Shown: positions 26,901 through 35,900, counted from the stretch's first letter. The stretch is DNA of 64,000 nt from Escherichia coli O127:H6 str. E2348/69 (GCF_000026545.1 NC_011601.1), one strand, 5' to 3'. Numbers: made by a program.

Positions 26901-29900
26901 CTGACGAGCTTATAGAAAAAGCTATTGCTTTCAAGCATGCGTATCGTCAGCAATATCAATATTACTTTGCAGATAAACAAATGTCTGCCAGGGGTTCGTA
27001 TGAGTATCGATGCACTACGATGGGCTAAAAAGGTGAAAACCGGCAGTTCATCCAGTAAGTCTGTATTGACCTGGCTTGCTGATATGTGCGGTGCCGATTT
27101 GTGTGCATACCCGTCTGTATCTGCACTGGCAGAAGTAACGGAACTGAACAAAAAGACTGTGCAGGACAGCTTACGACACCTGATGGAGATTGGGTTAATT
27201 GTTGATACCGGTGAGAGAAAAGGCAGAACAAAGCAAATTGTGGTGTACCGACTTATCGGTGTAGAAGAAAGTGTTGCCGAGCCTGAATACACCCAAAAAC
27301 GGGAGTCTTTAAAGGTGGGTAAAATCGGTGCTGTTAATAAAAACAGTACCGAAAATGGTTATGTTTCAGCACAAAACAGACCCAAAAACGGAACTCTTAG
27401 CTGCATGGAAAATAACCAAAGACACCCAAATTTTCCATCAAAGACACCCAAAAACGGATCACGGAACCCAAAGGAACCCAAAGAGCTAAACCCCACACAT
27501 AACGCACGCGAGAGTGCTCCGACCAGTGAGCAGAAAGTTTTGTCGTTACAGGCTGCACCTCCTGTATTCCTGGATGGCCTGAGCGAACCCATCGAAAAAT
27601 TTCCGATGACCGATAGCTGGTATCCGTCACGGGATTTTCGACGACGGGCTGCGTTGTGGGGGATGGCTTTGCCGGAGACAGAATTCACACCTGCTGAACT
27701 TGCCGCCTTCCGGGACTACTGGGCTGCTGAGGGGAAAGTGTTTACGCAGATTCAGTGGGAGCAGAAATTCGCCCGTCACGTAAATCACGTCAGGGCGCAG
27801 GTTAAACCAGTCAGCAAGGGGGTAAACCATGCAGCAGCACCAGGTGACACCGCATCACGGGCAGTTCAGGAAATTCGGGCAGCACGTGAGCAGTGGGAAC
27901 GTGAAAACGGATTTATCAGCGACGGAAACGGCCTGGAAGCTGTGGGAACTCATGGGGGAGGTTTATTCGAACCGCTGGACCCAGAAGAACGGGGCCGCAC
28001 CTTCGAAGCTCTGGATTGCACAGATTGGTGCGATGACTGAGCAGAAAATCCGACAGGTCTGCCGCCAGTGCATGGACCGCTGCCGGGCGGGTGAAACATG
28101 GCCTCCGGACCTGGCTGAGTTTGTGGCGCTGATTTCTGAAAGCGGAGCCAATCCATTCGGTCTGACGGTGGATGCCGTGATGGAGGAGTACCGTCGCTGG
28201 CGCAACGAGTCCTGGCGATACGACGGGAGCGATAAATACCCGTGGTCTCAGCCTGTGCTGTATCACATTTGCCTCGAGATGCGTTCAAAGGGGATTGAGC
28301 GGCAGATGACCGAAGGGGAGTTAAAACGGCTTGCAGAACGGCAGCTGACGAAATGGGCAAAGCATGTTAGTAACGGCCTGAGTGTTCCGCCAGTCCGGCG
28401 ACAACTGGCGGCACCCAAACGCCCGTCGGGGCCAACGCCAATTGAGTTGCTGAAACAGGAATATGAACGCCGGAAAGCGGCTGGGCTTGTCTGAGTTGAG
28501 AAGTAATTTTTACCGGGAGGAAATTTATGGAGACTGTTTTTGACGCACTGAAAGCAATGGGAAAAGCCACATCCATAGAACTTGCTGCGCGCGTGAAGAA
28601 GTGCTGAACGAACTATGGGAACTGAAAAAGGCTGGTTTTGTTGATAAAAGCGCGTACACCTGGCGTGTGGCTGATAACAACGTTCAGCAGGAACAGCCAG
28701 CGCAGGCAGAACTGCCGGAAGAAACCACCACAATGAGTGAAGTTATGCAGCGCATACTGGCATTTTATCAGGGAAATGTTCGATATTTTAGACGTTACTA
28801 GATTAAAGAGCATTAGTTCAGATGTGAATTGACATTGTGTGGCACAGGGTTGGGCTAGCGTGGGGGTTTGCTTTGTGTAAGAAACGGATGCTCTGCAAAT
28901 TACTACTAATGCTTAATGTTAGTCTGATCTGCTCCCCGATGATTAATACACCGCTATGTTAGTAATGTCTGTAGATCGCTGTGTGTTGCATCCATCGGTT
29001 GACCCCACAGTCCAAACCAGACTGTCAGCTTTGATTCGATTCTATCTACTCAACCTGTCAGGTAATGTCTGAGCTAATACACAGAGTACGGCTATCGCGA
29101 ACTTTAAGCTAGGTATCTGATACGCACCGTTCACTTGGTCGTACTTCTTGCACTGACTAGCTATCGTGCGCAGTTATTTATAGGTAATCTCCAGTGTATA
29201 ATTTTCCAACTTATGGGAGATTGTAAAACAGGAGGAATATATGAGGAAAAAATCGTTTGGACGTTGCCCGTTTGATTTCGACGAAGATGTAAAAAAAATA
29301 GCCGCGATAAATAAATATATCCATGCGAAATTTGAGAGGCATAAAAATAAAATAGATAACCTAAAGGGGGTGGAACAAAAATTGATGGTTTTACATTACT
29401 TTAATGTACTGAATGAACTTAGTAATCAGGCTATATTTTCTTTGAGTACCGGAGCCTTTTCAGCATCGGAAGTATTAACTAGAGTTATAATGGAACAGGC
29501 TGCCAATCAATTTTATATAGCAATTGATGATGGAAAAAATGCACAAGCATTACTCAAGGGTAGTAAGAAATTAGTTCATAGTAATGGGAAACGGTGGCTG
29601 GAGTGTTTAAAATCCAAAGAAATGACTAATCCAGCAGCAGATGAAAGGATTCGTATCGGAAAAGAGCTAACTGATATGTTTAATAGATTGTGGCCAAATA
29701 CACCTGAATATCCTGGAACCAAAAAGCTTTTCGAAGTAATTGGCTGGGAAACACACTATCATGCCTATTACGTCCCTCTTTGTGATTCAATACATACATT
29801 CTCTGATGATATGGCAAATATAGTATCTCTATATAATGCAATCCAAAGCGATAAAACTACTGCTATCGAACTCACTCTTGCAGTTAAACAAGAAAATAAA

Positions 29901-32900: not shown

Positions 32901-35900
32901 GATGCATATTATAAAAGCAAATCGTGTTTATGTGGACAAAACACCTAAAGGGCACTATACCATTGGAATATGTAAACTAAATAGATTTTTTCATTATTTT
33001 GGGATGTGTGATGAATTTGTTAATGATGCAAAAATTGCTGAGGCAAATGAAAATTTTTTCAAAAAAGGTAGTATTACTACTAATGAATTATTGGATGATG
33101 ACATTCATTTGATTTAACTATGAATTATTATATTGTAAAGTAATCAGGTAAGATATGTTAGACAGTGAGACTATTGCCTTACAGAATTCATTATTCTTAT
33201 GGATCGCCTTTCTGACTGATTTCATATTGGCGGGGTAACGGGAGTTAAGTAGAATGGCTGCGGGTGCTTGAGGCTATCTGTCTCAGGCATGAACACCAAA
33301 GGCAGATAGAGAAAAGCCCCAGTTAACATTACGCGTCCTGCAAGACGCTTAACATTAATCTGAGGCCAATTTCATGCTAGACACATGTAGGTTAGCCTCT
33401 TACGTGCCGGAAGGCAAGGAGATGTATGGGTCCACCACATATTGCAATTTTTATTCTCTTTTAAAATATATTCCACGGGCGTCATTAGTGCGAGCGCCTT
33501 GTGGGGTCTTTTGCTGTTATACAGCACCAGATATTCCGCCAGCTTCTGGTTAAATAGCGCCAGATCTTCAAAGAGTAAAATCTCATTAAATTCAATAAAC
33601 TGCTCTCTTAACGTCCGGTTAAAACGTTCACAGATAGCGTTCATTTTTGGCGTGTAGGGATAGGTCCAGAGGTGTTTGATAGCGGCTTCCTGCAGCGTTT
33701 TGTCGAAGTTTCCCAGGAACTCTTTTCCGTTATCTGTGATTATCTGGCTGATACCGACCGGGAACAACCGGGCTGCGCGGCTGAAGAAGTGATTGACGAT
33801 ATCACTGTTGAGTGACGGCACAGCCAGCGCCAGCGCGTAATTGCTGCATTCGTCGATCATGGTGATGACATAGCGACGCAGTTCGCCCATTCTGAGCTCA
33901 ATGGCGTCCATCCCAATGAGCTCACCTGTCTTTACCGGGCGGTAGTGCTTTGGCCTGCGGGGTTTGGCAGACCGCTTTTTGACAAGCAGTGCCTTCCCCC
34001 GCGATCCCAGACGCACAGGTATCATCCGCATTTTATCATGTGCGGCAGCGATCATTCTGCCGATGGTGGAAACACTCGGACAGGCCAGATAGCGCTGTTC
34101 GCACCAGGGCTTCAGGCGAACAAAAATCTGCTCTTTACCGAGGTTCGGCAGCTCTGTCCTGAGGCGTCGAATCTCTTTCAGCACATCGGGATGCCAGTGT
34201 TTTTTTCGTCGCACCAGAGGTGCCTTACTGTGCGGGATTAGCCCCTCAGGTCCTTCCTTGTTCAGTAACTGACGCCACCAGTAAAGCGTGCGGCAGGACA
34301 CGCCAAAGGCTTCAGAAGCTGCAGAAATACCGTGTTTATCCCAGAAGTGCAGAGCCTTCATTCTCATTGTTGCTATATCAGCCATCACTGAAAGCCTCAA
34401 CGCATAATCGGCCGTTTGGTAGTACTTAGGATAGCCAACCATCAGATGCTGCATTTGCATAGTGCAATCTCCCCTTACTTATCCGGAGGCAATTGCAATA
34501 TCTCTGTGAACTTACACAGGAGAAGCAGGCTATGAAGCAGCAAAAGGCGATGTTAATCGCCCTGATCGTCATCTGTTTAACCGTCATAGTGACGACACTG
34601 GTAACGAGGAAAGACCTCTGCGAGGTACGAATCCGAACCGGCCAGACGGAGGCCGCTGTCTTCACAGCTTACGAACCTGAGGAGTAAGAGACCCGGCGAG
34701 GGAGAAATCCCTCGCCACCTCTGATGTGGCAGGCATCCTCAACGCACCCGCACTTAACCCGCTTCGGCGGGTTTTTGTTTTTATTTTCAACGCGTTTGAA
34801 GTTCTGGACGGCGCCGGAATAGAATCAAAAATACTTAAGTAGCGCGCAGGGATAAGAGGGATGGTCCCTTAAAGGGGAGAGCTAATTATCCGGAAGGATT
34901 CTGATGATGAACATCGAAGAACTGCGTAAAATTTTTTGTGAAGATGGCCTCTATGCTGTGTGCGTTGAAAATGGAAATCTTGTTAGTCATTACCGCATTA
35001 TGTGTTTGCGAAAGAATGGGGCTGCGTTAATTAATTTTGTGGATGGTCGAGTGACAGACGGATTTATCTTGCGCGAAGGTGAGTTTGTCACTTCATTACA
35101 GGCACTGAAAGAGATCGGAATAAAAGCAGGCTTTTCAGCTTTTGCAGAAGAATAAACTCATCTACAATCTTGCGCGGGGCTGAACTCCCGCTGAGTAACA
35201 CCGTGCCACCGGAGAAAACCGATGGCACGCAACGTAAAATATTACAATTCTGATAATTCGCCCGTTCTTGCCTGCACGCACGAGCGGTATTCTCACGCAT
35301 TCAAGTCTGAATGGTTCCAACACCCTCCATGTACTGAAGAGCAGGCTGAATGGACAATTCAGTGTTACCGCAGGCGCGGATACGAGGTTAAGAAAGCCCT
35401 CAGCCTCGATTATCGTCACTGGATAATCTATGTCAGGCTCCCTTATTCCGAACGCTCACCGCGCCCATCCCGCACATACCAGCAACGGATCTGGAGGTAA
35501 CGTGCGGATATTACTTCGACCTGTTCTGGTACCGGAACTTGGGCTGGTGGTCCTTAGGCCGGGCCGTGAATCCATGCAAGTATTTCATAACCCTCGAGTG
35601 CTGGTGGAGCCTGAACCGAAAAGCATGCGCGGTCTGCCGTCCGGAGTCGTCCCTGCCGTTCGCCAGCCGCTGGCGGAGGATAAATCATTACTGCCATTTT
35701 TCAGCGATGAGCGGGTGATTCGTGCTGCTGGCGGCGCTGGGGCACTGTCTGACTGGCTGTTGCGTCATGTCAAATCCTGCCAGTGGCCTCATGGTGACTA
35801 TCATCACAGTGAAATCGTCATACATCGTTACGGTACCGGCGCGATGGTGTTGTGCTGGCACTGCGACAACCAGTTGCGTGACCAGACATCCGAATCACTC

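Follow-up and report, generated by a model that had tools for sequence, protein, structure and literature searches.

Closest described systems and the studied islet

The anti-phage system Septu comprises the ATPase PtuA and the nuclease PtuB. In the Septu system Ec-B88, residues K43, D316, H75, and N91 are essential and tRNA-Tyr is cleaved upon infection by phage T6; with its native promoter, the system protects against T5-like and T-even phages in an abortive-infection-like manner, and both activities are required (PMC13096335). For stand-alone PtuAB, a passage of PMC12819146 that cites earlier work describes hexameric complexes with ATP-inhibited DNA nicking that is sensitised by a phage tail fibre, and the solved stand-alone PtuA is reported to carry Leu in place of the signature Gln and to have no ATPase activity (PMC12819146). 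Here, we analyzed a 64,000-nucleotide (nt) stretch of the Escherichia coli O127:H6 strain E2348/69 chromosome (the window) and, within it, an AT-rich islet of about 4.4 kb between the replication genes and the hok/sok locus of a lambdoid prophage. An earlier note on this DNA, made from the sequence alone, had taken the overlapping ATPase-HNH gene pair of the islet for a poorly described system; instead, the pair belongs to Septu, which is named and has been studied both structurally and mechanistically (PMC13096335, PMC12819146). Our preferred reading, to which we assign a probability of roughly 0.8, is that the islet is a lambdoid cargo slot occupied by two independent AT-rich cassettes, one with a complete type I Septu system and the other with a DUF5677 gene and a dead tyrosine recombinase.

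Septu has already been reported in hotspots of prophages and satellites (PMC9122126). The cos-proximal and Z/fun hotspots of P2 and the psu-int hotspot of P4 hold varying, AT-rich and defence-rich cargo, Septu included, at fixed positions between conserved genes (PMC9122126, PMC13586616); Z/fun has been named as a P2 defence locus, P2 has been described as exchanging cargo with other prophages, and it has been asked by what route such cargo passes from one element to an unrelated one when neither transposons nor long flanking homology are involved (PMC13586616). The slot described here shares with these hotspots the fixed position and the varying, AT-rich and defence-rich cargo, Septu included, and it has one of its cassettes (cassette A) in common with the Z/fun locus. 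Unlike the P2/P4 hotspots, it is bounded by DUF977 and hok/sok in a Qin/Rac-like lambdoid prophage, a short recombinase unit divides it into two sub-slots (as seen when the window is compared with a sister prophage of strain Ecol_517), and the cargo found in its relatives is partly non-defensive (Paa adhesin, methyltransferase). Both the system formed by the main gene pair and the kind of location in which it lies were known before, and the finding adds one prophage-borne Septu and one phage cargo slot, as current knowledge would lead one to expect. The slot provides a clean coordinate-level example of two sharp-edged cassettes among three conserved anchors, one of the cassettes being common to a lambdoid and a P2-like phage.

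Septu gene pair

By its sequence, the ATPase-HNH pair constitutes a type I Septu system that is complete and has a promoter region of its own, and for which an anti-phage function is predicted. The ptuA and ptuB genes are co-oriented and overlap by 14 nt, and a scan for open reading frames (ORFs) revealed nothing further between ptuB and hok/sok. Upstream of ptuA, the highest-ranking promoter-like sites are those at 30921-30949 and 30970-30999, both within the Septu cassette. Both proteins match the PADLOC profiles over their full length: PtuA matches PDLC00283 (PtuA1) with E 1.9e-165 over residues 2-455 of 457, and PtuB matches PDLC00325 (PtuB1) with E 1.1e-83 over residues 7-212 of 214, in agreement with the suggestion of the earlier note that the islet carries an anti-phage system. 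Homology identifies PtuA as an ABC-type ATPase (Pfam AAA_21, E 1.8e-20; AAA_15, E 1.2e-16) and PtuB as an HNH nuclease (Pfam HNH, 23.9 bits against a cut-off of 21.4), with the motifs of both intact. The former contains Walker A GKNGVGKS at 34-41 (K40), the signature SSGEQ at 286-290, Walker B IILIDEP at 308-314 (D312, E313), and H-loop H347, and these ATPase motifs are invariant across 60 relatives; the latter contains CxxC at 56 and 93, H75, N91, and N100. In a Foldseek search of the PDB with an AlphaFold2 model of PtuA (predicted local distance difference test score, pLDDT, 83.4), the top 42 matches were all PtuA chains (including 8EEA, 8EE4, and 8SUX; probability 1.0, E 1e-8 to 1e-6), and AriA of the PARIS system ranked behind all of them.

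The pair resembles the stand-alone type I Septu systems (Ec-B88; 8EE4/8EEA) in being an overlapping two-gene operon with its own promoter region and a Walker A/B ATPase, and the catalytic His and Asn of PtuB occupy the same positions, H75 and N91, as in Ec-B88. In contrast to the solved stand-alone PtuA, the islet protein retains the signature Gln (SSGEQ), and thus this Septu subtype may hydrolyse ATP. By analogy, its general mechanism would be that of the studied Septu systems: in the lysogen, PtuA oligomers would keep PtuB in an inactive complex, an infecting second phage would free the PtuB nuclease, and the prophage would thereby shield both its host and itself against competing phages.

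Judging from its relatives, the subtype is common. We found more than 1183 PtuA relatives at E <= 1e-30, all of 440-470 amino acids (aa), with identities of 86% in Klebsiella, 70% in Dickeya, and 45-66% in Pseudomonas; hits of PtuA in phages were distant ones only. The ratio of nonsynonymous to synonymous substitution rates (dN/dS) of ptuA is 0.14-0.16, indicating purifying selection. No published mention of a Septu system in E2348/69 was found.

Two cassettes in a variable prophage slot

The islet had been called visibly AT-rich, about one-third G+C, and computation agrees with this estimate: the G+C content of 28837-33190 is 36.8%, compared with 47.7% in the left flank, 50.1% in the right flank, and 49.7% in the whole window. 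The proposed sliding-window and codon-usage profiles gave the same picture, with a mean G+C of 0.368 over 17 consecutive 500-nt windows inside the islet versus 0.507 (standard deviation 0.051) outside, and a G+C content at third codon positions of 0.21-0.28 in the three intact islet genes versus 0.47-0.63 in the neighbouring phage genes. The islet is by far the longest low-G+C block of the 64 kb, the other low-G+C runs being of 750 nt or less. ORF, domain, and annotation evidence recovered all four listed components, namely a non-coding stretch (28800-29240), an ORF of 280 aa, a decayed tyrosine recombinase, and the overlapping ATPase and HNH genes. The whole islet is present in 16 of 5426 complete E. 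coli genomes, or in 18 if two with a different left flank are counted; neither the islet nor DUF5677 was found in phage records (INPHARED; DNA search and tblastn).

Comparison with other hosts divides the islet into two cassettes (Table 1). Cassette B, which holds the Septu genes, is delimited by an enterobacterial defence island where nucleotide identity of 89% extends over exactly 30759-33188, with nothing shared outside; the relative encoded there is 90% identical at the protein level, and this Septu copy adjoins an Mrr-like nuclease and a helicase. At a prophage end in Klebsiella variicola, 30915-33130 is matched at 85% identity. Both of these Septu copies (86-90% identity at the protein level) occur without DUF5677 and without the recombinase. 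Cassette A (28924-30742) consists of a leader, the DUF5677 gene, and the short tyrosine recombinase, and its segment 28924-30673 is about 90% identical to a P2-like prophage segment located between the tail-fibre assembly and tail-sheath genes, which we take from the P2 map to be the Z/fun locus. The P2-type junction of cassette A occurs in 37 complete E. coli genomes, among them that of the type strain ATCC 11775, and in both P2-borne copies examined the recombinase is annotated in RefSeq as intact (194 aa). Taken together, these sequence comparisons describe the islet as a mosaic of two independently acquired cassettes that abut at 30742/30759, and not as the one captured, formerly mobile element that had been proposed.

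Table 1. Features of the islet and its flanks (positions counted from the first letter of the window).
Feature	Position	Strand	Evidence or remark
DUF1627 (ydaW-like) 5' remnant	28527..28735	+	Frameshifted and truncated; RefSeq pseudogene
DUF977 3' end and downstream remnant	28736..28877	+	Conserved left slot flank
Non-coding leader of the DUF5677 cassette	28924..29240	+	85% identical upstream of DUF5677 in P2-like prophages
DUF5677 gene, intact, 280 aa	29241..30083	+	Pfam PF18928, phrog_4167
Whole recombinase unit (hairpin, gene, GC-rich 3' hairpin 30716-30737)	30135..30742	+	Conserved block
Hairpin over recombinase Shine-Dalgarno sequence and start codon	30153..30191	+	13 bp and a bulged T in this copy
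Short tyrosine recombinase pseudogene	30189..30709	+	RefSeq: frameshifted, internal stop
Septu cassette (cassette B)	30759..33188	+	Delimited by comparison with other hosts
ptuA, Septu ABC-type ATPase, 457 aa	31122..32495	+	PADLOC, Pfam, fold
ptuB, Septu HNH nuclease, 211 aa from ATG (alternative GTG at 32473)	32482..33117	+	PADLOC, Pfam
Right slot flank, 5' regulatory part of hok/sok	33190..33422	+	Common to hundreds of E. coli prophages
IS481-family insertion sequence, with one copy of 6-bp target duplication	33423..34517	-	Outside the islet

The view that the islet is foreign AT-rich cargo at a position where related prophages hold other cargo is borne out by several relatives with different slots. 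Between the DUF977 end and hok/sok, these carry QueH and a KwaB-like gene, a methyltransferase, a hydrolase, the Paa adhesin, or PD-T7-1. The sister prophage of Ecol_517 (L023, slot at 2704-8717) agrees with the window in three parts, namely the left flank (28736-28877), the recombinase unit, and the DNA from 33190 onward that forms the right flank; however, it has a 314-aa gene and PD-T7-1 (E 7e-157) in the place of DUF5677 and a 326-aa gene in the place of Septu, and its recombinase copy is intact. This comparison gives the slot structure as flank, cargo 1, recombinase, cargo 2, and flank. The 314-aa and 326-aa genes have no Pfam or PADLOC match and are thus candidates by position. In the prophage that carries QueH and the KwaB-like gene (L004), a 97-nt copy of the hok/sok promoter and leader is found after QueH at 3395-3491 and again from 5469 onward, before the insertion sequence and hokD; this repeat suggests from its arrangement that cargo was inserted by recombination within the hok leader. 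The mosaic in the window probably arose via recombination at the conserved anchors, i.e., the DUF977 end, the recombinase unit, and the hok/sok leader, and integration as a single island was probably not its origin.

Short tyrosine recombinase unit

The short tyrosine recombinase and its relatives were examined in the window (30135-30742), at the locus L006 (7001-7689), and at the loci L026-L105. Its intact relatives are proteins of 194-200 aa that comprise the PF00589 catalytic domain only (E 9e-18), with the catalytic residues Arg...His-x-x-Arg...His...Tyr, not all of which are present in the window copy. Compared with the intact copies, the window gene lacks 82 bp that encode residues ~42-69, among them the first catalytic Arg; it is also shifted in frame by +1 at one point and by -1 at another, and 5 nt have been inserted. 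The same frameshifted pseudogene is annotated in every examined carrier of the islet. The intact relatives are as far from the FimB/E invertases as from Xer and score well under every NCBIfam cut-off. An assignment to the FimB/FimE-type invertases was rejected, since model NF007371 gave 22.9-25.5 bits against a cut-off of 222, as was a FimB/FimE-type invertible segment, since the sole strong inverted repeat is the 39-nt hairpin at the start codon and the gaps to neighbouring genes are as small as 47 nt. A fimS-like invertible switch in the 440-nt non-coding stretch was likewise discarded, because no inverted repeats bracket that stretch and the islet carriers are colinear there.

In the intact E. 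coli copies, a perfect 15-9-15 inverted repeat spans the Shine-Dalgarno sequence and the ATG codon. RNA folding (RNAfold, -55 to +6) placed at least 3 nt of the Shine-Dalgarno sequence in pairing with an upstream partner in 60 of 67 relatives. Compensatory changes preserve the pairing; the stems vary by clade (ATCTCC/GGAGAT, GTCCTCC/GGAGGAC, CAGACTCC/GGAGTCTG, and TTGAACTCC/GGAGTTCAA), and the upstream arm that pairs with the Shine-Dalgarno sequence contains CTCC. The hairpin looks like a device for fold-back inhibition of translation from read-through transcripts, by analogy with the IS10 and IS50 transposases, for which fold-back translation control is known; alternatively, it may be a site that acts at the DNA level.

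The unit is 86-91% identical at the nucleotide level to units in the E. coli strains Nissle, EC31, Ecol_517, C311, and STEC1585, with differing genes on both sides. The neighbours include HEC-08 (E 1e-173) upstream in Nissle, a gene annotated as an anti-phage dGTPase followed by a type I restriction-modification system in C311, an Mrr-like endonuclease in STEC1585, and a CBS-domain protein in EC31. Relatives of the recombinase were identified in at least 547 species-level genomes, and the best 80 of them (61-97% identity at the protein level) range from Enterobacterales to Burkholderiales, with some in Flavobacteria and in metagenome-assembled genomes of Acidobacteriota. We surveyed 111 immediate neighbours of at least 100 aa at 74 recombinase loci. 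Ordinary or accessory genes make up the majority of these neighbours (LysR regulators, DDE transposases, MFS, GNAT, Fic, and PIN), and about one-tenth are strong PADLOC hits (SIR2, NsnA, pAgo, GajA/B, LmuA, SoFic, Old, PD-T4-2, Avs1, and DRT), a share above what we would expect for random genes, the yardstick here being our own expectation and not a matched control. The recombinase was rejected as a defence-specific marker across species, given that LysR regulators, transposases, and transporters are commoner beside it than PADLOC hits.

The closest published parallel is the use of serine recombinases as defence markers (PMC12632615), where a small recombinase gene also recurs beside variable defence genes and where a DUF5677 gene is among the recombinase-linked candidates; here, in contrast, the enzyme is a tyrosine recombinase of 200 aa, and only about one-tenth of its neighbours across species are recognisable defence genes. 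The earlier note had read the recombinase wreck as the sign of independent movement of the islet; we found a catalytic-domain-only enzyme that is part of cassette A, with no att-like direct repeats above chance at the islet ends, and conclude that it is not the integrase of a captured island. Since the unit recurs beside differing defence genes, including in this slot, it may serve in cargo exchange, either as a homology anchor or, where intact, as an enzyme. The widespread small recombinase, whose Shine-Dalgarno sequence is sequestered in a hairpin, offers a candidate solution to the cargo-movement question for the P2/P4 hotspots and, if it does move cargo, would be the tyrosine counterpart of the serine-recombinase markers.

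DUF5677 gene

The 440-nt stretch that precedes the 280-aa gene is composite, consisting of the DUF977 remnant (to ~28877), a junction of ~45 nt, and the 317-nt leader of cassette A. The leader contains a perfect TATAAT at 29197-29202 and AGGAGG at 29231-29236, seven bases before the ATG, consistent with the promoter and Shine-Dalgarno sequence that had been attributed to this gene. Retron or other structured RNAs were sought in the non-coding stretches by an Rfam scan at E <= 1, which gave only hok/sok, outside the islet.

The protein matches PF18928 (37.5 bits against a cut-off of 27.1) and, end to end, phrog_4167 (E 1e-176), and its sequence has no match in PADLOC, NCBIfam, or the PDB. Among 1.84 billion representative sequences searched, 53 representatives were related at E <= 1e-3. 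In an alignment of 45 sequences, R81, E85, F164, Y173, and H185 are invariant and E77, N89, W119, P158, S183, D190, N193, and Y225 are near-invariant, a pattern that fits an enzyme or a ligand-binding site. The AlphaFold2 model is all-alpha (pLDDT 94.8) and found nothing below E 0.1 among viral structures. The dN/dS value versus the P2-borne copy is 0.35, and thus the gene is constrained, though less than ptuA.

In distant genomes, DUF5677 stands as a lone gene in Pseudomonas-like chromosomes, adjoins a PemK-like gene, or belongs to an element that also carries an integrase and a methyltransferase, and no constant partner gene was found across six such contexts. We consider it most likely that DUF5677 is an independent moron made up of one gene, with a possible defensive role, rather than a component of Septu. 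Its positions, in the P2 Z/fun hotspot and in the sub-slot that holds PD-T7-1 in the sister prophage, argue for a defence role through association alone; the gene is a candidate new defence gene. A more far-reaching proposal is that DUF5677 is an undescribed single-gene anti-phage protein and that the linked 200-aa recombinase is the agent or anchor that shuttles defence cargo among P2-like phages, lambdoid prophages, and islands; we offer this combination tentatively and regard it as rather unlikely to hold in full.

Two further observations concern this family. The closest relative outside E. coli (53% identity; L009/L010, 8001-9563) is followed 31 nt downstream by a same-strand ORF of 237 aa with no Pfam match, possibly a partner gene of DUF5677 in that lineage. 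A 221-aa protein from an ENA contig (P0006) combines a QueH domain with a stretch that is 94% identical to about one-third of the DUF5677 protein, and may be a chimera from recombination between two cargos of the same slot.

Alternative explanations

The assignment of the gene pair to stand-alone Septu was weighed against other systems that combine an ABC ATPase with a nuclease (PARIS, Gabija/OLD-like systems, AbiL, or a retron effector). PtuA has weaker PADLOC matches to AriA, PDC-M01A, ATPase_I-A, and AbiLi, its best sequence matches in the PDB are AriA and retron PtuA, and the effectors of the type I-A retrons (Ec78/Eco7, Ec83) are the same ATPase-nuclease pair, with chains among the top structural matches. 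The competing PADLOC matches, however, extend over the C-terminal ATPase motifs only, and the full-length match to PtuA surpasses them by 140 orders of magnitude; the AriA profiles, for instance, cover only residues ~270-354 (E 2e-22). PARIS was rejected because the partner protein is an HNH nuclease, which matches PtuB end to end, and not a TOPRIM/DUF4435 protein. A type I-A retron was rejected because neither a reverse transcriptase ORF (28.5-34.8 kb) nor an msr/msd RNA or other Rfam retron family was found at the islet; in addition, the islet PtuA is about 90 aa shorter than retron PtuA and lacks the retron-specific insertions, and the NCBIfam models for retron-Ec78 PtuA and PtuB score far under their cut-offs (NF041760, 65.8 bits against 500; NF041761, 30.5 against 150). 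Membership of the pair in any of these other systems is therefore extremely improbable. Only slightly less improbable is a three-gene Septu variant in which DUF5677 would act as sensor, regulator, or antitoxin. The three genes do lie on the same strand in one AT-rich block, occur together in 18 of 18 E. coli carriers, and have stayed intact while the intervening recombinase decayed; yet DUF5677 is present without Septu in the 37 P2-like prophages and as a lone gene elsewhere, PtuAB homologs at 86-90% identity occur without DUF5677, and the gap of ~1 kb between DUF5677 and ptuA is taken up by a dead gene, a hairpin, and separate promoter-like sites.

It is likewise unlikely, though less remote than either of these, that the 4.4 kb were a single self-mobile integrative islet that entered the phage by means of its own tyrosine recombinase and later decayed. 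The mid-islet position of the recombinase, the differing defence genes that flank its unit in several E. coli loci, this slot included, and its spread over many species, as expected for a mobile entity, would all suit such an origin. What separates the two readings is that cassettes A and B have separate distributions with sharp, separate boundaries, that direct repeats flanking the islet were not found, and that the recombinase, which lacks a match to an N-terminal DNA-binding domain, is dead in every examined islet carrier and has mostly ordinary neighbours across species. Several results nevertheless weigh against our preferred reading of two independent cassettes with a complete Septu and a DUF5677 gene. 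Cassette B is always accompanied by cassette A in complete E. coli genomes, and thus joint transfer within E. coli is possible, in line with a single islet. The PtuA model has low template-modelling scores (0.2-0.36) to solved PtuA, which we attribute to domain orientation. The islet PtuA resembles the solved or tested PtuA of E. coli Septu in sequence only within the C-terminal ATPase motifs (E 3e-7), and a PDB sequence search with PtuB at E <= 1e-3 gave no match; for these reasons the trigger and the target (DNA or tRNA-Tyr) are not confidently transferable, and the same C-terminal-only alignment to solved PtuA and AriA, together with the result for PtuB, indicates a distinct Septu subtype. 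As to DUF5677, the one experimental result found is negative: a homolog from lactic acid bacteria, an Enterococcus protein whose gene is associated with a serine recombinase, did not protect against six phages of Enterococcus (PMC12632615).

Prophage setting and slot anchors

The host element is a Qin/Rac-like lambdoid prophage of the enteropathogenic E. coli (EPEC) strain E2348/69, integrated beside potC; the window matches the chromosome record NZ_CP059840.2 of this strain at 100% identity. Its gene order begins with int, xis, exonuclease, dicB, ydfABC, repressor, DicC, and YdaT and continues with a DnaT-like O protein, P, a truncated DUF1627 gene, the islet, hokD, rem, DUF968, RusA, and the late genes. 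In relatives the order is O, P, DUF1627 (~250 aa), DUF977 (~140 aa), variable DNA, and hokD, with DUF1627 and then DUF977 both of full length in L106 and L107. Similarity of the window to DUF977-bearing prophages begins at 28735/28736; the segment up to 28877 also aligns with the 3' ends of DUF977 genes in many genomes, and the DUF977 remnant is 94% identical to L004 (2501-2603) and 84% identical to L023 (2704-2846). As deduced from this alignment, the break near 28735 is a deletion joint, where the 5' part of DUF1627, which is also frameshifted, has been fused to the last ~100 nt of DUF977. The earlier note had placed a break at 28760-28800: the break is real, but it lies near 28735, and the variable slot starts only at ~28837-28877, past the DUF977 remnant. 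On the right side, phage DNA had been said to resume at the hok promoter (33227). The hok/sok flank and a promoter-like site at 33227-33255 are indeed present; however, the boundary itself lies at 33189/33190, and DNA common to other prophages resumes at 33190. The sok family of Rfam (RF01794) matches 33262-33428 (E 1e-25).

The hok/sok leader (33262-33428) is split from the hokD ORF (34532-34687) by the IS481-family element, where transposase domains were found; the transposase ORF (33372-34460, minus strand) extends 51 nt beyond the end of the element into target DNA. The other examined islet carriers (L005, L003) and L023 lack the element, the junction showing an overlap of 6 bp. The same IS481-family element occupies the same site in prophages with other cargo (L004, L106, and L107). 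The prophage as a whole is probably defective. It also has ISEc13 (IS4 family) and, next to it, an IS200C-type tnpA at ~43265-45234, between the SASA-family esterase and holin genes.

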